Source: an uncultured bacterium | Lineage (GTDB): Bacteria > Desulfobacterota_D > UBA1144 > Nemesobacterales > UBA2774 | Reading direction: 5' to 3' | NCBI GenBank assembly: GCA_963825135.1 | Contig: CAWGRW010000009.1 | Location: forward strand, 321,008 to 385,007 | DNA: 64,000 nucleotides | In this document: positions 9,914 through 60,821 of the stretch, one piece after another | How positions within the stretch are numbered: the first letter of the stretch is position 1 | How the letters are laid out: the number at the start of each line of letters is the position of its first letter | The notes under the pieces: model-generated | What the model saw: the letters and a program-made list of their open reading frames with translations, nothing else | The model's database searches: none | Told to the model about the DNA's origin: nothing | Translations under genes and position numbers: made by a program

Positions 9914-9987
9914 GAGCCGTTAGCTCAGCTTGGTAGAGCAACTGACTTTTAATCAGTGGGTCACAGGTTCGAATCCTGTACGGCTCA
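9914..9987 (+). tRNA. tRNA-Lys (anticodon TTT)
   Basis: 74-nt cloverleaf folded by hand: acceptor GAGCCGT/ACGGCTC, D-arm GCTC..GAGC, anticodon arm ACTGA-CTTTTAA-TCAGT, T-arm ACAGG-TTCGAAT-CCTGT; CCA not encoded. Confidence 0.9.
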
Positions 9988-9998
9988 TACTCGTTTAC

Positions 9999-10073
9999 GT
10001 CCCCGTCGTCTAGCTCGGCCCAGGACATCGGCCTTTCACGCCGGTAACAGGGGTTCAAATCCCCTCGGGGACG
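9999..10073 (+). tRNA. tRNA-Glu (anticodon TTC)
   Basis: Near-identical to canonical bacterial tRNA-Glu (GTCCCCGTCGTCTAGC..GGCCTTTCACGCCGG..GGGGTTCAAATCCCCTCGGGGACG); acceptor GTCCCCG/CGGGGAC; 11 nt after tRNA-Lys. Confidence 0.9.
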
Positions 10074-10300
10074 CATCGCTTTCCCGAAGTACAGTAACAG
10101 AGTTGCCACTATCCAACAGCGACCGACTGCTCACTTGCTCGCAGTCGTTGGGGACGCATTTATTTCCCGGAGTACAGCAAAAATTCTGCCTTTGTTCAAA
10201 GGCGTCCAATTCCTCGCTCGCTCGGAATTGTTGGGGACGCATATATTTCCCGGAGTAAATTTACTTCACTGCACTTTTTCAAGGGCGTCCGGTCCCTGAG
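10074..10300 (+). repeat. Tandem array (2 full units + 1 truncated, ~84 nt each) abutting tRNA-Glu; each unit ends with a copy of the tRNA 3-prime end TTGGGGACGCA and carries a 7-bp hairpin with conserved 10-nt loop
   Basis: GGGGACGCA recurs at 10066-10074 (tRNA), 10150-10158, 10233-10241; hairpins cgactgc-tcacttgctc-gcagtcg (10124-10147) and caattcc-tcgctcgctc-ggaattg (10207-10230); same family as array at 47324-48233. Confidence 0.8.
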
Positions 10301-18622: not shown

Positions 18623-20578
18623 TTGAATTTTTCCTTCCTTAACCCGCTGTTCCTCATAGGATTCGCCGCAGTCGCGCTGCCCTTTATCGCACACCTCATA
18701 TCGAGGAAGAGCGGGGTCGTACAAAAATTCCCCGCCGTCAGGTTCCTGATCGCCTCACAAGGGGACGCGTCCGCGAGGTCGAGGCTTAAAGACCTGCTGC
18801 TGCTAATGCTGAGGGCGCTCATAATCGTCCTCCTCGTGCTCGTATTCTCAAAGCCCGCGTTCTTCTCCTTCGCCCCCGCCGGAAGCTCGGGGCCCGGGGC
18901 GCTCGCCATAGTTATAGACAACTCGTTCAGCATGGGATACGGGGACAACTTCGAGCGCGCCCGCAAGAAGGCGTCCGGGCTGATAGACTCGCTCCCCGAC
19001 GGGAGCTTCGGCATAACGGCCCCGCTCGTAGGCGGAGAAGGCGCGCGTCTCGCCCCCGCCGGCGATACGGCGGGCATGAGGGAGGCACTCGACGGAATAA
19101 AGCTTTCTTACTCGTACGCCGACAATGAAAAGAGACTCGAAGAGGCTTACTCCGCCCTCGAAGGCGCTCCCGGACGCTCGAAAGAGGTCGTATTCCTGAC
19201 GGACCTCCAGAAGAACGGGTGGACCGGTCGTAAATTCGAGAAGGACTGGCTCAGGATTATAGACGTGTCCGGCGGCGCCGCACCCGCTAATCATGCCGTG
19301 ACGGATACGGCCTCCGGGTACAGCGGGGATCTGGCGACGCTCGGAATGACCGTGTCCAATTTCTCGGAGAAAGAGGAAAAAGGGCTGCTCGCCTCGATAA
19401 ACGCCGGGGGAGAGGACCTGAGCGCGTTCATAGACGTCCCGCCCGGCGGGAGCGTGCGGAAGGAATTCACGGTACCCGGGGACTTTCTTTCCGCCGACAG
19501 GAAGAAAGAGGGCACAGCCCGGATACCGCGCGACAATCTCCCGGTCGACGACACCAGATACTTCGTCCTCTCGGGCAGGGAGGGATTTAACGTGCTCATA
19601 GTCGACGGCGACGCGAGGGAAGAGGCGAGACTCTCGGAGACCTACTACCTCGCGAGCGCGGCCGAGACGGTGTCCGAGATCTCAGGAGCGCGCGTCACGG
19701 TCAAAGACAACGACAGCTTCCTCGAGGAAAAACTCTCGGGCTACGACCTCGTATTCCTCGCGAACGTCGGGGACATATCGGAGGAGAGCGCGAAGGAGCT
19801 CGGGGAGTTCGTCTCCCGCGGAGGAACTGCCGTTATATTCCTCGGCGACCGCGTAAGGTCGACCTCCTACAACGCGCTCCTCGGGAGCGTCATGCCGGGC
19901 GAGCTCGTCACCGAGGAGGAGAGAGAGACGAAAATCGTGCCCGGGGCCGTGTCCGTTTACCCGAAGGACGTCGCCGACAGGCTCGGCCAGGTCGAGGTCA
20001 GGCGGTATTTCAAAACGGTCCCGCACCCTGAATCCGAAGTCATGCTCGGGCTCGAAGGCGGCGATCCGTTCCTTCTCAGGAACGCGCTCGGCAGAGGGAG
20101 CGTGTTCCTCGTGACCTCGACCGCCGACACGGGCTGGAGCAGCTTCGCCATTTCCACCGTGTTTCTCCCCGTCGTGAAATGGTTCCTCGACGTGCCTGGC
20201 TCGTCGAACGAGAAGCGGAGGAACTATACGGTCGGGGACGGCGTCCCGCTCGATATATCTCCGGGCTCGGACTCGGTCGAAGTGATAAGCCCGTCCGGAA
20301 AAAAATACGTCCGCGGCATGACAGCCCCGGTATTCGAAGAGACGGGCGAACCCGGCATATACACGGTGAGGGAGTCCGGGAAGGATTCGTATAAGTTCGC
20401 CGTAAACGTAAACCCCTCGGAATCCGATCTCCGCAAGATCGAGATTCCGCAGGACGAGCCCGCCGCCGCCGGCGATCAGGGCCTCGTAAAGATATACAGG
20501 GAGATATGGAGGTACTTCCTCTGGGGCGCGGTGCTGCTTTTCATATCCGAAGCCGCCGCAAGGGCGGCGTTCTCGTAA
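18623..20578 (+). CDS. BatA/BatB-like membrane protein: N-terminal double-TM domain + von Willebrand factor A domain
   Basis: 651 aa; N-terminus MNFSFLNPLFLIGFAAVALPFIAHLISRK (TIGR02226-like), vWA (LAIVIDNSFSMGY), C-terminal TM; 12 nt after DUF58 gene. Confidence 0.7.
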   Translation: MNFSFLNPLFLIGFAAVALPFIAHLISRKSGVVQKFPAVRFLIASQGDASARSRLKDLLLLMLRALIIVLLVLVFSKPAFFSFAPAGSSGPGALAIVIDNSFSMGYGDNFERARKKASGLIDSLPDGSFGITAPLVGGEGARLAPAGDTAGMREALDGIKLSYSYADNEKRLEEAYSALEGAPGRSKEVVFLTDLQKNGWTGRKFEKDWLRIIDVSGGAAPANHAVTDTASGYSGDLATLGMTVSNFSEKEEKGLLASINAGGEDLSAFIDVPPGGSVRKEFTVPGDFLSADRKKEGTARIPRDNLPVDDTRYFVLSGREGFNVLIVDGDAREEARLSETYYLASAAETVSEISGARVTVKDNDSFLEEKLSGYDLVFLANVGDISEESAKELGEFVSRGGTAVIFLGDRVRSTSYNALLGSVMPGELVTEEERETKIVPGAVSVYPKDVADRLGQVEVRRYFKTVPHPESEVMLGLEGGDPFLLRNALGRGSVFLVTSTADTGWSSFAISTVFLPVVKWFLDVPGSSNEKRRNYTVGDGVPLDISPGSDSVEVISPSGKKYVRGMTAPVFEETGEPGIYTVRESGKDSYKFAVNVNPSESDLRKIEIPQDEPAAAGDQGLVKIYREIWRYFLWGAVLLFISEAAARAAFS

Positions 20579-22058: not shown

Positions 22059-24844
22059 TCATGAGAAATACCTGTCGTATATCTTCCTTATCGAATTCGT
22101 CTTCGCAATATATTTTTCCCTGAGCTTCTTCCCGCCCGCGCCCGCGTCGAGCTCGGACGAGAGCTTGTCGAAATCGCTCTCGTAAAGCTCGTTTATCGAC
22201 CTGTCGCGGAGCAGCCTCAGGAGGTTCTCCATCTTTTTAAGGAAATAGAGGCCGTCCGAAAGCGAGACGTATTCCTTCTCCTTTATAATACCCGCGTCCC
22301 GGAGCCCGTTAAGCGCGTCGAGCGTATTCTGTCCCCTCACCTCCGCGTGCGCGGCCCCGTGCTTTAACTGGAGCATCTGGACGAGGAACTCTATATCCAC
22401 TATCCCGCCGTGCCCGGTCTTGATGTTGAGCTTCCCGGCACTCTCCCTCGCGAGCTCCGATTCCATCCTGGCGCGGAGGCGGTTTATCTCCTTATCGAAA
22501 TCTGCGGCAGGGGCTTTCCGTAAACGAATTCCTCTATGGATCCGGTAACGCGCGTTCCGAGCTTCACGTCCCCCGCCGAAGGCCTCGCCCTTATGAGCGC
22601 CTGCCTCTCCCACACCTGTGCGCTCTCCTCGTGGTATCTCCTGAACGCCTCGTATGAGGTCACCAGCGCGCCCGAGCGCCCCGAGGGCCTGAGCCCCATG
22701 TCTATCTTGTACGCGAACCCCTCTCCCGTGGGCACGGATAGTATGGAAATCACCTTCTGCCCGAGCTTCGAGAAATACTCGTGCTCCCCGGCCTCGCCGT
22801 CGTATATGAATATGATATCCAGGTCCGAATTATAGCTGAGCTCCCTGCCGCCGAGCTTCCCCATACCGAGCACGATCATGCGCGTTCCCTTTTTCTTTCC
22901 CTTCTCCTTAACCGAGACGATGTCCCGCGCGAGACCGAGACCGACCTCGAGCACCGCCTCGGCGACGAGGGAAAGATACCAGCCGACGTAAAAGGGATCG
23001 ACCTCGCCGTTTAAGTCCCGGAGACAGATCTTGAGAGTCTCCACGTGCCTGAACCTCCTTATCGCGTCGAGCTTGCCCCCGTAGTCGCTTTCCTGGGACA
23101 TCGCGGATTCGAGCTCTCTCAATATGTCCTCCTTCGACGCGAACTCCGTCCTCACGCTCCTGAGCGTGATAACGTCCAGGTACTCGGGGTGCCTGATGAG
23201 GAAATTCGAGAGATACCCGCTCGTCGAGAAGAGCTTAGAGAGGAGCTCGATGATGTCGGGGTTCTCGAGCAGCACGGCGTAGATCGAGGTCCTCCAGCCG
23301 ATGCCGGAGATGAAACGCTCGAGGTTGATCAGCGCCGCGTCGGGGTCGGGGGATTTCAAGATACTGCCGAGGAAGGCCGGGATCACGCGCCTCGTCGTGA
23401 CGCGCCCTTCCCGCGTGAGCGCACCCCTCCTCGGGTCAAGGAGCTTCGAGAAAAGGTCGATCGCGCTCGAGGGGTTTTTAAATCCGAGTTTCTTGAGGTT
23501 ATCGACCGCTTCTTTTTCATCGATATTCCCCTCGGTCAGGAAGTCGGCCGCCCTGAGGAATTCCTTTCCCGATTCCTCGGTTTTTTCAGAACGCTCGTAA
23601 AAGAGGCTCTTGAATATCTTCGACACGGAGGACGTCTTGTCCGCGTAGAGCGCCTCGAACTCGTCCCTGTCCCGGAGCCCCGCCCTCTTCGCGAGCTTCT
23701 CTATCTCCTCGGGAGAGACCGGTATCTTGTGAGTCTGCCTCTCGTCGGCGATCTGAATGTAGTGCTCCACCCTCCTGAGAAAAAGATATGAGGACGAGAG
23801 CGTGTCGTGGACGTCCCTGTCTATTATTTTATTGGCGTTTAGTTTTTCGAGCGCACGGAGGGTGTTGTTCTCCCTGATGCCCTTTACCGCCCCGCCGTTT
23901 ACGAGCTGGAGCGCCTGAATGAAGAACTCTATCTCCCTTATCCCTCCCCTGCCGAGCTTCACGTCGCGCTTCTTCTCGAGCCTGTCGAGCTTCATCTTCA
24001 TGTCCTTCAGGTCCTCTATCGACGTGAAGTCGAGGAACTTCTTGTAGACGAAGGGCTCGATCTCCTTTATGAATTCCTCGCCGAGGCGCAAATCGCCCGC
24101 AACGGGCCTCGCCTTTATCATAGCCGCCCTCTCCCACGTATCGCCCCAGTAGAAATAGTGCTCGACCGCACCGTCTATGGGCACCGATACGGAGCTCTTG
24201 CTCCCGCCGGGCCTGAGTCCCAGGTCCACCCTGTAAAGGAAACCGTCCTCCGTCACGGCGCTCAGCGTCTTCGTAGCCCTTTCGCCGAGCCTGAAAAACG
24301 GGTCGGGGTCCCCGTCGTCCCTGTAGATATAGATGAGGTCCACGTCCGAGCTCAGGTTGAGCTCCCGGCCGCCTAACTTCCCCATACCGAGCACGACGAA
24401 CCCGCCCGCTCCGTCCATTCCGAGATCTTTCCTGTGATACGAGAGCACGGCCTCGATCACGGCGCACGCGAGGTCGGAGAGCTCCTCCATCGTATCGGGG
24501 AAAGGGGCCGCGCCGGTTATGTCCCTGTACGCTATTCTCGCGAGCTCCCTGTATTTATACCGGGTGAGGCGCGTCTGGAGCTCCGCCTGCGATTGTGAGG
24601 AATCCATTACGCCCCGCGATTCGTCTGAAAAACGGGCGGGGTCTTTTTTCGTCTTGAGTATTTTTGATGAATCGAGGTAATCGAGTATTCCGGGGTCTCT
24701 CAGCACAGCCCTTCTCAGGAACGAGCTCCAGGAGGCGAGCAGCTCCAGTATGTCCTTCTTTGCGGACGGGATGTCCCCGTGGAGTTCCCTGAAACGCTCT
24801 AAAGCGGTGCGGGCGTTATCGGGGTCGGGTAATGCTCTACTCAA
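22059..24844 (-). CDS. glnE: Bifunctional glutamine synthetase adenylyltransferase/adenylyl-removing enzyme GlnE, split by apparent frameshift near 22490-22610
   Basis: Two nucleotidyltransferase cores (VVLGMGKLGGRELNLSSDVDLIYIY; IVLGMGKLGGRELSYNSDLDIIFIY) in ORF 22484..24844; ORF 22059..22613 carries the remaining C-terminal GlnE domain; combined ~928 aa. Confidence 0.75.
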
Positions 24845-40848: not shown

Positions 40849-41770
40849 ATGAGTAATAAAGACCTGATCAAGAGGGCGCGTAAATTCGCTGCGCCGTTCC
40901 GCATCACGAAAGGCGGCAAGTTCCGCCTGAAACACATAGATCCCGGCGACACGCTGCATCTCCAGTCAGAGGACAAGCCCCGCGCCAGGGAAGTGCTCGC
41001 CATGGGAGTCGAGCTGCTCTCCGAGCTTCAGGATATGCTCTACGCCCAGGACCGCTGGTCTCTGCTGATCATCCTGCAGGCAATGGACGCCGCGGGAAAG
41101 GACGGCACCATAAAGCACATCATGTCCGGGGTGAATCCGCAGGGCTGTCAGGTCCATTCCTTCAAGTCGCCTTCGGAGGAAGAGCTCGACCACGACTACC
41201 TGTGGCGCTGCATGAAGGCTCTGCCGAACAAAGGCGAAATCGGCATATTCAACCGTTCCTATTACGAGGAAACGCTCGTGGTGAGGGTCCATAAGGAATA
41301 TCTCGCCAACGAGAAGCTCCCGCCCGAGCTCGTTACACGCAGCATCTGGAAGGAGCGATTCCAGGATATACGCAGCTTCGAGCGTTACCTTACGCGGAAC
41401 GGGGTGGTAATCCGAAAGTTCTACCTGCACGTTTCAAAGGAGGAGCAGGAGACGCCGTTTCATGGAGCGGATCGACAACCCGGAGAAGAACTGGAAGTTC
41501 TCCTCCAGTGACGTGAAAGAGCGTCAGTACTGGGACGATTACATGGAAGCCTTCGAAGACATGATCCGGAACACCGCCACAAAGGAAGCGCCGTGGTATG
41601 TCGTCCCCGCGGACAACAAATGGTTCACTCGTCTTGTGGTCGCGGCGGCTGTAATCGATGCCCTTGCATCTCTAAACCTGCATTATCCGAAGGTGGACGA
41701 GAAAAAACTAGAAGAACTCGCGGTTGCGAAAAATCTATTAGATGGGAGAAGCGGAAATGGTAACCGATGA
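40849..41770 (+). CDS. ppk2: Polyphosphate kinase 2 (PPK2 family), split by apparent 1-nt frameshift near 41445-41470
   Basis: Walker A MDAAGKDGTI, Walker B/lid; ORF 41462..41770 continues the PPK2 C-terminus (RFMERIDNPEKNWKFS...WYVVPADNKW) after wrong-frame tail of ORF1. Confidence 0.75.
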
Positions 41771-47249: not shown

Positions 47250-47323
47250 GTCCCCGTAGCTCAGAAGGATAGAGCGCAGGATTCCTAATCCTGAGGCCGG
47301 AGGTTCGAATCCTCTCGGGGACG
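47250..47323 (+). tRNA. tRNA-Arg (anticodon CCT)
   Basis: 74-nt cloverleaf: acceptor GTCCCCG/CGGGGAC, D-arm GCTC..GAGC, anticodon arm CAGGA-TTCCTAA-TCCTG, T-arm GGAGG-TTCGAAT-CCTCT; CCA not encoded. Confidence 0.9.
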
Positions 47324-48233
47324 CAACCATACAGATCTTCAATCGGTTCTTGCGCCGGAAGCTGGACGCATATCAGTCGGAGAATAGACATTGTTGCAAT
47401 TAACCTATGGCGTCCGATTCCTCCTATTCGTCGAAATCGTTCTCTCGGGGACGCAAAACTTTCCCTAAGCATAGTGGCTCTATTGCATTCTTCCAAAGGC
47501 GTCCGGTTCTTGCGCATCGCTCAGAAACCGTTCTCTCGGGGACGCAATAACTCAGTCCGGAGAATCAGTAACATTGTTGCAATTAACCTATGGCGTCCGA
47601 TTCCTCCTATTCGTCGAAATCGTTCTCTCGGGGACGCATAACTCAGTCCGGAGAAAGAAGTGAATAACATGGCGTCCGATTTCCTATCTCTGTACCATTC
47701 AGTCCGGTTAACATGGCAAAGTCGACTAGTCGAAACGTCCGGGACGCATAACTCAGTCCGGAGAATAGAACATTGTTGCAATTAACCTATGGCGTCCGAT
47801 TCCTCCATTCGTCGAAATCGTTCTCGGGGACGCATAACTCAGTCGGAATAGAACAGCTGGATCTATTCGTCGAAATCGGGGACGCATAACAGTCCGGAGA
47901 ATAGTAACATTGTTGCAATTAACCTATGGCGTCCGATTCCTCCTATTCGTCGAAATCGTTCTCTCGGGGACGCATAACTCAGTCCGAAGAATAGTAACAT
48001 TGTTGCAATCAACCTAAGGCGTCCAATTGCTCACTTGTTCGCAATTGTTTCTCGGGGACGCAGCAATTTACCAAAGTACAGTGACCATGTTGCATTCTTT
48101 CAAAGGCGTCCAATTTAGTTTGGTTTCAGTAGATCATCCCGAGAACATTGGCATTGTTGCAATTAGCATAGGGCGACCGGTTTCTCACTTGCTCGAAACC
48201 GTTACTTGTTCGCAATTGTTTCTCGGGGACGCA
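47324..48233 (+). repeat. ~910-nt tandem array of ~10 units (52-171 nt, modal 85-92) directly abutting tRNA-Arg; every unit ends in (C)TCGGGGACGCA (copy of the tRNA 3-prime end) and contains a tRNA-3-prime-half-like remnant with a 7-bp hairpin
   Basis: GGGGACGCA at 47317, 47447, 47538, 47630, (47741), 47826, 47878, 47966, 48054, 48225; unit consensus TAACTCAGTCCGGAGAATAGTAACATTGTTGCAATTAACCTATGGCGTCCGATTCCTCCTATTCGTCGAAATCGTTCTCTCGGGGACGCA. Confidence 0.85.
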
Positions 48234-48494
48234 CACACAATGTATGCTCATAGAGGTTTCCTATGAAACTCTTCCTATTTCCCAGGTAGCCTAGGAGCGG
48301 CTTCCAGCCGCAACCTTTTTTCGAAGTGCTGAGTCAGGGTTGCCAATTGACAATGTCCTCCAATTGTTCATTATCCCGGAATCGTTAATGCACATTATAT
48401 AAGATGGGGGACGCGGCCGGCAGGATGCACCGATATTTTCAATTTCTTAAAAAATTAGTCTGTCATAATCAAAAAATATCATTATAATTCGGGG

Positions 48495-50274
48495 ATGATG
48501 AAATCCGTTCTACCCATTCTGTTGATACTTCTGTTTGCACTTTCCTGCGACTCCTCAGGTCCCGGAAACTCGGCGAACGTTTTCGGAGACAATGTGCCCG
48601 ATCCGGATGCAGTCGCCGAGGGCCCTGTCGAGAGCGACGTAGTCCTGGACATCGTACTCGGGCTCGCGCGCTCTCAGGATAGTCTCGCCGAGAGAGTCGA
48701 TGAGCTCCACGATCCGGGCTCCCCTCATTATCACGATTTCAGGAGCGTTCCGGAGATCGCCGAGGAGTTCGGGGCCGACGATTCGGCAATAAAGACAGTG
48801 CAGGAATACCTGGACGGGCTTGGCATTTCCTTGACCGCCGATGCCACAAAGGGATTTCTTCACGGCCGGGCGACGGCTGCGCAGCTGGATCAGCTTTTCG
48901 ACACGGAGCTTTTTTATTACAAGATAGACGAAGGCACTTTTATTGCGCCCTCGATAGCGCCTTCGCTCCCCGCGGCGCTTAACGGACTTGTGACGGAGGT
49001 TCTGGGTTTAAGCACCGAGCCTTCTCTCTGGGAAATCTCCCCATCCGACAGATTCCGAGACCGCTCTCGGCCCATCCGTTGCAATCGACACGCCGGGCTC
49101 CCCGACAGTCACGGGGACCCGCGAGGGGTGCGCCGACGCCCTCAAGCAAAAAGGCTTCACCCCGAACCAGTTTCGAACGGCTTACGGGATCGATGACCTT
49201 CACGAGCTCGGTTTCGAAGGGCAGGGCATCACAATGGCCCTCGTCGAGGGAACCAGTTTCGAGCAATCGAATATCGATAAGTTCACATCCTGTTTCGGAA
49301 TTTCCAATCCCGTCGTTCCGACGGTCGTCCAGCTGGGAAGCGACGAGCTCAAACCCGACGGAGAACCGTTTCTCGATATTGAAACAGCTCTAATGATCGC
49401 CCCCAAGCTCTCGGGGCTTTACGTTTTTCAAGAGAAACTCAATTCCCTGGCCGACTGGATCACGCTCTTCTCCGCGCCGCTCAACACCAAGCACACGGCG
49501 GGGGTTCCCGTGCAGATAATGTCGGGGAGTCTCGGAAACTGCGAGGTCAAATGGGGGTTTGCGGCAATTAGTACGCTGGAATTCGTATTCATGAACGCGG
49601 CAGCTTCAGGGGTGCACGTGTTTATCTCCGCGGGAGACAGCGGCTCGTCCACATGTTTCCACCACGATAAAAAGACCAAGACCAAGTCCGCCGAGTATCC
49701 CGCGTCGTCGCAATACGTCACAGGCGTCGGCGGGACTAACCTTGCGCTCAATGAGGACAACACGATCAAGGGAGAGGGCGTATGGAACGACCAGGATTTC
49801 CCCGCTCCCTACAACAAAAAGTTTGGAGCCGGCGGCGGCGGCAAAAGCATGTTCCTCTCGAGACCTCTCTGGCAGAAGGGAACGAAAATAAAGGGCTTCA
49901 GGAGGACGACGCCCGACGTGGCATTCTTCGCCGATCCTTTTCCGGGCTACGTCATAAACGACTCGCTGAAAGGCTGGTTCGATAACGGGGGCACGAGCGC
50001 CGCGACGCCGTTTTTCGCCGCGTCCATGGCCCTCGTGCTCCAGGCCGCGAAGGAAAACGACGTAACCCTCGACCTCACTTACGAGCTAATCTACAAGCTC
50101 GCGAACAGCGACGCCTACGACGGGGTTTTTCAGGACGTGGTCATAGGGAATAACGACCTCTTCGACGTCGGCTGCTGCACTGCGGGACCGCGTTACGATA
50201 TGGCAAGCGGGTGGGGATCGCTCAACATCAATTCCCTGGCCGAAGTCTTGATCCCGGGGTTGGGGAACCGATAG
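48495..50274 (+). CDS. S53-family (sedolisin/kumamolisin-like) serine peptidase with pro-domain, split by apparent frameshift near 49030-49060
   Basis: ORF 48495..49196: signal/lipobox + pro-kumamolisin activation domain; ORF 49234..50274: catalytic domain with SGDSGSS and GGTSAATPFFAA (Ser nucleophile); frame of ORF2 stays open upstream to ~49020. Confidence 0.75.
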
Positions 50275-60219: not shown

Positions 60220-60480
60220 ATGGCAGAGAGCGTCAACGTTAGAATCACGGGAAAGCTCATCAAATTCGTGAAGGACCAGACAGGCCCGGAGGGAATGTAT
60301 GAATCGGTAAGCGAGTATGTCCGAGCCCTGATCAGGCAGGATTATGAGCGGCTTGAAGAGCACAGATGGCAACGGCTCTATGGGGAGCTCGAGCCAGGAA
60401 TGAACGCCGGAGAGAGCGAATTTATCGAGGTCGGGGCCGAGGACGTAATCGCCAGAAACCGCGGCAATCAAAAATTATGA
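60220..60480 (+). CDS. parD: Type II antitoxin, ParD/CopG ribbon-helix-helix family
   Basis: 86 aa; N-terminal beta-strand + helices (NVRITGKLIKFVKDQTG...SEYVRALIRQDYERLE), ParD-like C-terminal tail; stop overlaps parE start (ATGA). Confidence 0.65.
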   Translation: MAESVNVRITGKLIKFVKDQTGPEGMYESVSEYVRALIRQDYERLEEHRWQRLYGELEPGMNAGESEFIEVGAEDVIARNRGNQKL

Positions 60481-60821
60481 TGCGGTATCGTTTTTTTCCC
60501 GCCGCGGACAGGCGCCAGGACGAAATATGGGATTACACGCTCGAGAAATGGGGCGAGCAGAAGGCAGTTGAATACATACGCGGCATGCACGACGCGGTCT
60601 CGAAGGCCGCTGAAAATCCGCAGCTGCGGCGGAGGATGGAGCGCAAGGGGTTCGAAAAGGTTTTCTACATACGTTATGAGAAACACCTCATATTCTTTCG
60701 CCTCCTCTCGGGAGGGGTACTGGGTATAATCAGCATGCTGCACGAGCGGATGGACATTCCCGCCCGCCTGAGAGAAGACATCAAAGAAAACATTAAAACT
60801 CGAAAACGAGAGAATGAATAA
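60477..60821 (+). CDS. parE: Type II toxin, ParE/RelE family
   Basis: Start at 60477 (Met-38 of the ORF-track translation); motifs YRFFPAADRRQDEIWDYTLEKWGEQ, HLIFFRLLSGGVLGIISMLHERMD typical of ParE. Confidence 0.7.
   Translation: MMRYRFFPAADRRQDEIWDYTLEKWGEQKAVEYIRGMHDAVSKAAENPQLRRRMERKGFEKVFYIRYEKHLIFFRLLSGGVLGIISMLHERMDIPARLREDIKENIKTRKRENE

Follow-up and report, generated by a model that had tools for sequence, protein, structure and literature searches.

A 64,000-nt stretch of DNA from an uncultured bacterium (contig CAWGRW010000009.1; hereafter the window) contains two tRNA genes that are each followed by an array of short repeated units built around a hairpin. The locus raises the question whether these hairpins are kept by selection on their pairing and, if so, what kind of element the units are. 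An original prediction, made from the letters of the sequence, had held that the stems change on both strands around a conserved loop, as a selected structure would, that a second, outer helix may close around the hairpin, and that decay of duplicated tRNA ends would not give this pattern. Positions below are window positions unless a locus is named, and the related loci are short contigs of the series L002-L055.

Covariation of the inner helix

Three true tRNA genes were found in the window with ARAGORN, for tRNA-Lys, tRNA-Glu(UUC) and tRNA-Arg(CCU). The latter two have the 3' end TCGGGGACGCA in common, and hairpin-unit arrays lie directly 3' of the tRNA gene at both of these loci. All 12 exact copies of GGGGACGCA in the window are located there, and cutting at this motif gave units of 83-92 nt, tRNA-Glu being followed by two units and a truncated third, and tRNA-Arg by about ten, for which Tandem Repeats Finder reported a period of 91; among the parts of the tRNA-Arg array are a 171-nt composite, a 182-nt terminal piece and units that are decayed or partial (Table 1). 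The unit of about 88 nt consists, in order, of 4-5 variable bases, TTYCCSGRAG, about 30 poorly conserved bases including GTTGCA, and GGCGTCC, followed in the right half by a 7-bp stem with a loop of 10-13 nt, GTT, a linker of 0-6 nt and GGGGACGCA, which is a copy of the tRNA 3' end. The left part, of about 45 nt, is fast-evolving, and the last of the seven bases 5' of the stem are GCGTC in most units, the others having GCGAC or GTGTC there.

All four perfect hairpins named in the prediction were read in the sequence (Table 1), as were the majority-unit hairpin CGATTCC/tcctattcgtc/GAAATCG (e.g. 47934-47958, with one C.A mismatch) and one unit with CGGTTCT..AGAAACCG (47456-47546). The loop was found to be conserved at its ends, where the first T and the final TC are near-invariant; the claim did not hold for its middle, which falls into several classes of 10-13 nt.

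Covariation was measured on an alignment of 24 distinct units from 13 loci. Within it, 94% of the stem cells of the 7-bp helix pair, with changes on both sides in five of the seven pairs, the remaining two being essentially invariant. The observed covariation score was reached by 0 of 500 shuffles, and pairing fell to 17-48% when the 3' partner was slid by 1-3 columns. As a control of the R-scape kind, a G-test with average product correction (APC) was applied to all 4,278 column pairs, which share one phylogeny, and the five variable stem pairs ranked 1, 2, 5, 6 and 8. The covariance model built from the alignment identified 47 copies in the window and the related loci, those in the window lying only at the two tRNA arrays, and the covariation result was unchanged on them. 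Because the variable stem pairs top the corrected ranking among pairs of the same phylogeny, maintenance of the inner helix beyond phylogenetic expectation is supported. A covariation test of the kind that had been proposed therefore came out in favour of the prediction, with five stem pairs among the top 8 of 4,278, and structural selection on the inner helix is borne out by compensatory change well beyond shared ancestry in the shuffles, the G-test and the 47 copies alike.

At least ten distinct perfect stems occur across 14 loci from different samples, four or more of them within a single array, and single-step intermediates are present (CGATTCC/GGAATTG and CAATTCC/GGAATCG). The commonest stem, CGATTCC/GAAATCG, was found with five different loops in six genomes. 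Units with identical hairpins are only 44-84% identical in their left parts, and conservation or exchange of the hairpin module is therefore independent of the left part.

The outer helix fared differently. GCGTCC 5' of the hairpin and GGGGACGCA at the unit end are both present as described, and GCGTCC is complementary to the GGACGC read at the unit junction. All pairs of this closing stem, however, showed zero covariation in the APC-corrected G-test; five of the 24 units carry GCGACC (T>A), which breaks a pair with no compensation; and the GCGTC tag persists where GGACGC is missing downstream, as it is for inner and solitary units, the inner element of composites reading GGGCGACC ... GTT-ACTTG, with the tag and without its partner. 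With the tRNA end fixed, the pairing cannot covary. A role for GCGTCC as a sequence tag, or as a guide that matches the GGACGC junction, is more likely than one as half of a closing helix. An acceptor-like TTCCCGA/TCGGGGA pairing closing the whole unit was also tried and rejected, as its sole variable pair (columns 15/86) covaries by a lineage effect into a non-pair (T.C, in L051). As a separate observation on the same motif, CCA is not encoded in tRNA-Glu (9999-10074) or tRNA-Arg (47250-47324), in which CA follows the discriminator G, and the complementarity of the unit GGCGTCC to GGACGCC, the mature end after CCA addition, extends over one base more than that to the genomic GGACGCA.

Descent of the units from tRNAs was considered next to these results. 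Degenerate tandem tRNA copies (pseudo-tRNAs), with hairpins derived from tRNA arms, would agree with a unit length of about 88 nt, near that of a tRNA plus spacer, with units that end in the acceptor 3' strand, and with the CCCGTAGC.CA that the units of L051 share with the 5' part of tRNA-Arg (p about 0.03). Against this, neither ARAGORN nor the Rfam tRNA model, even at E<=10, matched anything in the units, and Rfam searches of the window at gathering and permissive thresholds returned only the three tRNAs and no known RNA family in the units. Local alignment of the unit bodies with tRNA-Arg, tRNA-Glu and tRNA-Lys, judged against shuffles, gave no significant similarity in 22 of 24 units, tRNA-identical sequence is confined to the terminal 9-14 nt, and the loops have 10-13 nt, not 7. 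All stem variants share one loop pattern (first T, final TC) and are therefore homologous to one another; they do not come from different parent tRNA anticodon arms, the origin that would have spoken against the prediction, and its view that decay of duplicated tRNA ends would not give this pattern agrees with the comparisons above. From these sequence comparisons the pseudo-tRNA explanation appears already largely refuted and is barely tenable.

Related loci and the behaviour of the units

Relatives were sought by pattern scans of 185,579 species genomes (one scan) and of JGI metagenomes (one scan), which gave many chance matches in G+C-rich DNA. Twelve true related loci were obtained in this way (L002, L005, L014, L022, L028, L033, L034, L041, L043, L049, L051 and L052), and a thirteenth, L055, through a homologue of the neighbouring histidine kinase; three other loci fetched through the same kinase had lost synteny and added no array. 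The host clade of the related loci is Dadabacteria-like (Thermodesulfobacteriota / Candidatus Dadabacteria). Matches such as L009, L018, L023, L025 and L029 were discarded as unrelated G+C-rich tandem repeats or arrays of short palindromic repeats, clustered and regularly interspaced (CRISPR). L025 is such a CRISPR array, with a repeat that contains GGGGACGCA. Five metagenome contigs (L029, L032, L035, L044 and L046) carry tandem repeats of 28-47 nt, GTAGGGGACGCACACCGGGCGTCCCG, with a GTAG-tagged palindrome GGGACGC/GCGTCCC, and these are probably classical GTAG-type clusters of repetitive extragenic palindromes (REPs) from another organism. The units themselves were rejected as a CRISPR array, the parts between hairpins being homologous to each other (TTYCCSGRAG and GTTGCA motifs) and not unrelated spacers.

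Wherever the contig reaches upstream, the arrays start right after tRNA-Arg(CCU) or tRNA-Glu(UUC) and run on the tRNA strand; the contig of L033 begins inside its array. The tRNA genes that carry units end in ...TCGGGGACGC. Internal copies of the core always read GGGGACGC-A and the distal-most copies continue with GCG, GCT or GCC, and the junction was therefore placed immediately after GGGGACGC. The copy of the tRNA end usually follows the local tRNA, with CCCTCGGGGACGCA at Glu loci and CTCTCGGGGACGCA at Arg loci. The linker likewise usually goes by locus: CCCTC is found at Glu loci, CTCTC at Arg loci, and CTGCC in L051, where the T-stem of the tRNA carries the CTGCC variant found in the units; the one exception to the match with the local tRNA is a CCCTC unit at the Arg locus of L043.

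Copy number varies from one or two units (L002, L005, L014, L022, L043 and L051) through four (L055) to about ten in the window, and among relatives with common flanking genes it changes by whole units only, with the breaks at the core. The same unit classes are present at both tRNA loci, and truncated and decayed copies occur. Arrays at the Glu locus end in a unit cut inside its loop, a type of truncation seen in array 1 of the window and again in L028 and L034. At this loop-cut point, L014 and L034 have a GDSL-lipase gene and other short repeats (CACACAATGTGTG...). The gene encodes a membrane-anchored GDSL/SGNH lipase of 393 aa (L014, 831-2012; L034, 1886-3067), is bounded on one side by a complete unit-type hairpin and GGGACGCA, and is absent from the tRNA-Glu array of the window.

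Units are also nested. The composite of array 2 is a unit whose hairpin is split after CAATT by an 88-nt unit-like insert, which starts with TAGTTTGG, ends with its own hairpin and GTT, and is followed by the orphan ACTTGTTC-GCAATTG. L002 has a near-identical insert at tRNA-Arg and L034 has two at tRNA-Glu, and the 171-nt composite occurs at both tRNA-Arg and tRNA-Glu. Inserts ending in hairpin-GTT occur in several different outer hairpin contexts, and a second family of inserts lies in hairpin loops of L005, L041 and L049. One solitary unit, at L034 6295-6383 (+), is oriented against the array and separated from it by about 2.6 kb, with a gene on either side but no tRNA end; it has the hairpin CGATTCC/tcgcacgctc/GAAATCG and the tag GTGGCC, ends GTTCTC-GCAATGAC, and is followed 20 nt further on by an inverted CACACAATGT motif. 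On the strength of the variable copy number, the units common to both tRNA loci, the unit away from a tRNA and the nesting, the units behave as a repeat or mobile element, not as a conserved RNA gene.

The nested units also bear on whether the pairing could have arisen with no structural selection, the palindromes being made symmetrical by intrastrand template switching or gene conversion between the arms, and the array being a minisatellite grown by neutral slippage. Neighbouring copies in the window array are near-identical, as is typical of recent tandem amplification (period 91), and the chimeric composites show that units recombine. This explanation is nevertheless very unlikely: the left part has diverged to about 60% identity where hairpin and tag stay conserved, ten or more perfect stem variants have been kept across the 14 loci, the loop-end positions are invariant, and in two versions of the composites the outer arms have remained complementary after being split (CAATT..GCAATTG and CGAATT..GAATTCG).

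Attachment (att) sites left by elements that integrate into tRNA genes would give a similar arrangement. Each unit would then be a pair of fused attP/attR arms with a displaced tRNA 3' end, which we consider unlikely; equally doubtful is the related proposal that the hairpin arms are inverted core sites of a tyrosine recombinase, changing together through a common protein and not through pairing. The units are indeed bounded by direct repeats of the tRNA 3' end (9-14 nt) that usually match the local tRNA, tRNA-Arg is a break in synteny with different downstream genes among relatives, the Glu array of L014 and L034 holds a gene-bearing segment (the GDSL lipase), and of tRNA-Arg L049 has only the 3' half, the kind of remainder that integrative elements leave. 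On the other side, no integrase was found in or beside any of the 14 arrays, and no unit in phage genomes (blastn; tRNA matches only) or IMG/VR viral contigs (two pattern scans). Four or more stems in a single array would imply several integrase specificities acting together, the 10-13-nt spacer exceeds the usual overlap region of 6-8 bp, the tRNA-identical segment is only 9-14 nt, and units of a constant 88 nt or so are unexpected from independent deletions. Compared with the tRNA 3'-fragment repeats of known integrative elements, the units share the direct repeats of the tRNA 3' end that bound an insert and the tandem accretion at one tRNA; they differ in the very short repeated segment (9-14 nt), in an 88-nt length with neither genes nor integrase, and in the covarying hairpin that each unit has. 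The half tRNA-Arg of L049 (reverse strand) starts at the anticodon stem, precedes the first unit by about 100 nt and has A+T-rich unrelated DNA upstream; it is either the far-end pattern of an element integrated in the anticodon loop or a sign of a chimeric contig.

Strand of folding and the nearest described elements

Where the tRNA strand has a mismatch it is mainly C.A or A.C, for which the opposite strand has a G.T wobble, and the commonest stem, CGATTCC/GAAATCG, is one such case. With RNA parameters the antisense strand folded better in 11 of 11 variants (-9.5 kcal/mol against -2.2 kcal/mol on the tRNA strand for the major variant), and the RNAalifold consensus was -11.3 kcal/mol antisense and -4.4 kcal/mol on the tRNA strand; with DNA parameters the two strands were similar. 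The TC...TC loop ends read GA...GA on the antisense strand, where sheared G.A pairs could form. The preference for the antisense strand in these folding models is suggestive only, as independent events are few. GC skew was not used to assign the lagging-strand template, as it disagrees with the orientation that tRNA genes usually have. The antisense strand had no predicted promoter, and the terminator scan gave no site between tRNA-Arg and 48297 or inside the arrays. Unit hairpins do not combine the G+C-rich stem and T-run of an intrinsic terminator; the only such site, 48297-48322, comes after the array.

An element acting as RNA is possible, though well short of probable. The array would be transcribed as a 3' trailer of the tRNA and grow by duplication, and its hairpins might block exonucleases, guide RNase processing, terminate transcription without a U-tract or supply small RNAs. 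This would suit the co-orientation of all arrays with the tRNA and their position immediately 3' of it, the placing of the first terminator-like site after tRNA-Arg beyond the array, and the covariation, which is a classical RNA signature; REPs, moreover, are often thought to act as RNA (PMC3733652). The number and order of units are, however, not conserved between close relatives, copies are truncated and nested, and one is inverted and away from a tRNA. The commonest stem has a C.A mismatch on the strand that would be transcribed, and both it and the consensus fold less well there than antisense. The stems are AT-rich and without U-tracts, no terminator was found inside the arrays by the scan, and no Rfam family was matched. 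Taken as a whole, the context of variable copy number, nesting and movement between loci is better suited to a repeat element than to a dedicated RNA gene.

The closest described objects are the CGTC-tagged REPs. In these a palindrome has, at one of its ends, an unpaired tag, CGTC or TGTC, and there is no dedicated transposase; dRS3 of Neisseria is one of them (Di Nocera 2013, PMC3733652), and neisserial intergenic mosaic elements are built from dRS3/NTS repeats. dRS3 and the longer NTS (CGTC-ATTCCC-N8-GGGAAT-C) are cut by the GIY-YIG nuclease SsnA only as single-stranded DNA, and dRS3 is also the target of a phage recombinase (PMC11893778). The units of the window have an unpaired tag of the CGTC type directly 5' of the palindrome (GCGTC, with GCGAC and GTGTC as variants), and one of their stem classes, ATTCC..GGAAT, resembles the ATTCCC-N8-GGGAAT of dRS3. 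Like these REPs they lie between or downstream of genes, clustered with intervening repeat blocks and with no adjoining dedicated transposase, and as dRS3/NTS hairpins are targets for insertions, so the units have inserts in their hairpins. They differ in a stem of 7 bp that starts C-G and then G/A (8-9 bp starting with A-T pairs in the described families), a loop of 10-13 nt (4-5, or 8 in dRS3), a tail of GTT (CCA or C), a head-to-tail arrangement at tRNA ends for all copies but one in the 64 kb and the short related loci (mostly head-to-head dimers), and their tie to two tRNA genes, whose 3' end they carry.

The description that fits the units best is that of a new variant, linked to tRNA ends, of the tagged palindromic repeat elements; they look like an undescribed relative of REPs, and we give about an even chance to their being miniature repeats of the REP or neisserial-mosaic-element kind that act at the DNA level and are mobilised in trans. 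They would then be miniature, non-autonomous elements that accumulate head to tail after tRNA genes. The hairpin would be a cis-acting structure required for copying, moving or recombining the element, most likely recognised, in the form of folded single-stranded DNA, by an enzyme whose gene would lie elsewhere in the genome, and the proposed need for a folded hairpin would explain why pairing is kept while the stem sequence drifts. This reading is favoured because the pairing is selected, the hairpin module is independent, the behaviour is repeat-like, the junction is precise and likeness to RNA families or tRNAs is absent, and because the tag-plus-palindrome layout is that of CGTC-tagged REPs and dRS3/NTS and the antisense fold is better. 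Covariation, unit anatomy, the junction after GGGGACGC, copy-number variation, the sharing of units between loci and nesting were read directly; from them we infer the action on DNA, the action in trans and the kind of enzyme.

Several results weigh against a REP-like element. Pfam matched no transposase, integrase, RAYT (REP-associated tyrosine transposase) or GIY-YIG gene among about 50 window open reading frames (ORFs), the small intergenic ORFs and 30 ORFs flanking the related arrays, all of which were housekeeping or unassigned. The SsnA-target motif HGTCWYN(0-2)YYVSBRHN(0-5)WNVSBRGN(0-2)RNCYNB, by which ssnA genes (GIY-YIG, cd10448) are often flanked, was searched on both strands of the window; it was absent from the arrays and had one unrelated match, at 20038. 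Unlike classical dispersed REPs, the family is found almost only at two tRNA loci, with one copy away from a tRNA among 64 kb and the short related loci, and its stem length, loop length and tail are not those of the described CGTC families. Target duplication is absent from nested inserts, whereas tRNA-linked units repeat 9-14 nt of target, so that no uniform mechanism is evident. The majority hairpin is no more stable than shuffled sequence with DNA energy parameters. Finally, the arrays are co-oriented with the tRNA and, as no terminator is predicted before 48297, are probably transcribed as its trailer.

A more specific proposal, which we regard as improbable, is that the units are sites or minimal cassettes of an undescribed, structure-specific system for insertion of single-stranded DNA. 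Such a system would dock on the tRNA-Arg/Glu 3' end GGGGACGC, recognise a hairpin free in sequence together with the GCGTCC guide, insert also into the hairpins of resident units, and occasionally carry a gene as cargo (the GDSL lipase of L014 and L034). It would parallel integron attC/attI recombination or the guide-directed targeting of IS200/IS605, with a different enzyme. The ends of IS200/IS605 elements and REPs mobilised by RAYT likewise have a subterminal hairpin a few nt from the element end, insertion immediately 3' of a fixed short sequence and a structure read on one DNA strand, and the complementarity of GCGTCC, 5' of the hairpin foot, to the junction GGACGC recalls the recognition of a cleavage site by a guide; five of the 24 units break this pairing. 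Unlike IS200/IS605, the units have one hairpin each and not one at each end, repeat 9-14 nt of target where IS200/IS605 makes no duplication, include inner and solitary copies that lack the GGACGC partner, and are accompanied by no HUH/Y1 transposase in the window or the tested flanking ORFs. Integron attC sites and integrase-less attC clusters share the recombination-site-like hairpin of conserved structure and free sequence, the head-to-tail arrays beside a fixed anchor, the better fold on the bottom strand and, in relatives, a gene-bearing segment. They differ in that no RYYYAAC/GTTRRRY boxes were found on either strand of the units, in which GTT abuts the stem and pyrimidines come next, in that no integron integrase was found among the window ORFs, in that nearly all 'cassettes' are empty and only 88 nt long, and in that the anchor is a tRNA end and not attI.

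If the hairpin is the handle of a mobile repeat docking on a tRNA 3' end, the units would be a compact, sequence-defined case of structure-directed targeting of single-stranded DNA, in a poorly studied phylum (Dadabacteria / Thermodesulfobacteriota), and would extend the tagged-REP family, whose enzymes (RAYT transposases and Ssn nucleases) are being developed as single-stranded DNA tools. If the structure acts instead in the trailer RNA of the tRNA, it would be an unusual modular 3' trailer of variable copy number. Clean covariation of its stem does not by itself make a bacterial intergenic repeat an RNA gene, which matters for RNA-discovery pipelines based on covariation.

Feature positions and neighbouring genes

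Table 1. Window positions of the tRNA genes and of the parts of the two unit arrays.
Feature	Position	Strand	Description	Source
tRNA-Lys	9914-9987	+	different 3' end; no units attached	ARAGORN
tRNA-Glu(UUC)	9999-10074	+	3' end CCCCTCGGGGACGCA, anchor of array 1	ARAGORN, Rfam, sequence
Array 1, unit 1	10076-10158	+	tag GCGAC; hairpin CGACTGC/tcacttgctc/GCAGTCG, 10124-10147; then GTT and GGGGACGCA	covariance model, 77 bits
Array 1, unit 2	10159-10241	+	tag GGCGTC; hairpin CAATTCC/tcgctcgctc/GGAATTG, 10207-10230; then GTT and GGGGACGCA	covariance model, 76 bits
Array 1, unit 3, truncated	10242-10300	+	left part, tag, 5' arm CGGTCCC (10290-10296); stops inside loop	covariance model, 30 bits
tRNA-Arg(CCU)	47250-47324	+	3' end CCTCTCGGGGACGCA, anchor of array 2	ARAGORN, Rfam
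Decayed unit remnant	47326-47370	+	5' half of CGGTTCT-type hairpin; ends GGACGCA	
Array 2, eight tandem units	47371-48062	+	mostly CGATTCC/tcctattcgtc/GAAATCG; last has hairpin CAATTGC/tcacttgttc/GCAATTG, 48024-48047	
Array 2, units 1-4	47371-47455, 47456-47546, 47547-47638, 47639-47748	+	unit 4 aberrant	
Array 2, units 5-8	47749-47834, 47835-47886, 47887-47974, 47975-48062	+	unit 6 partial	
Composite unit	48063-48233	+	171 nt; outer 5' arm CAATT ends at 48115; insert 48116-48203, with hairpin CGGTTTC/tcacttgctc/GAAACCG, 48178-48201	
Composite, distal part	48204-48218	+	orphan loop remainder and 3' arm ACTTGTTC-GCAATTG; then TTTCTC and GGGGACGCA	
Terminal piece of array 2	48234-48415	+	starts with palindromic CACACAATGTATG; ends GGGGGACGCG, distal-most tRNA-end copy	
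Within terminal piece	48297-48322	+	terminator-like hairpin and T-run	
Within terminal piece	48313-48392	+	decayed unit	

The terminal piece of array 2 is the window copy of a second kind of short repeat, which follows the unit arrays and starts with the palindromic CACACAATGTGTG; this copy holds the sole terminator-like site after tRNA-Arg. The repeat was also found in L002, L005, L014, L022, L034 and L041. Copies in relatives end in the hairpin GCGGAT-GCT-ATCCGC and occur in tandem, and also beside the solitary unit of L034.

Beside the array, a sedolisin gene is split into a pro-kumamolisin activation domain (48495-49196) and a peptidase domain (49234-50274), which form a single ORF of 588 aa in L049; the split is probably a frameshift or an assembly indel next to the array. 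Two further window genes are split into overlapping ORFs whose Pfam matches continue one another, PPK2 (40849-41511 and 41462-41770) and the GlnE adenylyltransferase (22059-22613 and 22484-24844), and these are likely further frameshifts, pointing to indel errors in the assembly. With several split genes in the window, assembly errors may likewise account for some of the small indels by which near-identical units differ; the covariation is unaffected by them, because it is based on substitutions in many independent assemblies. A ParE-family toxin of a type II toxin-antitoxin system is encoded at 60366-60821 and was the only window ORF to match a family typical of mobile or accessory DNA.

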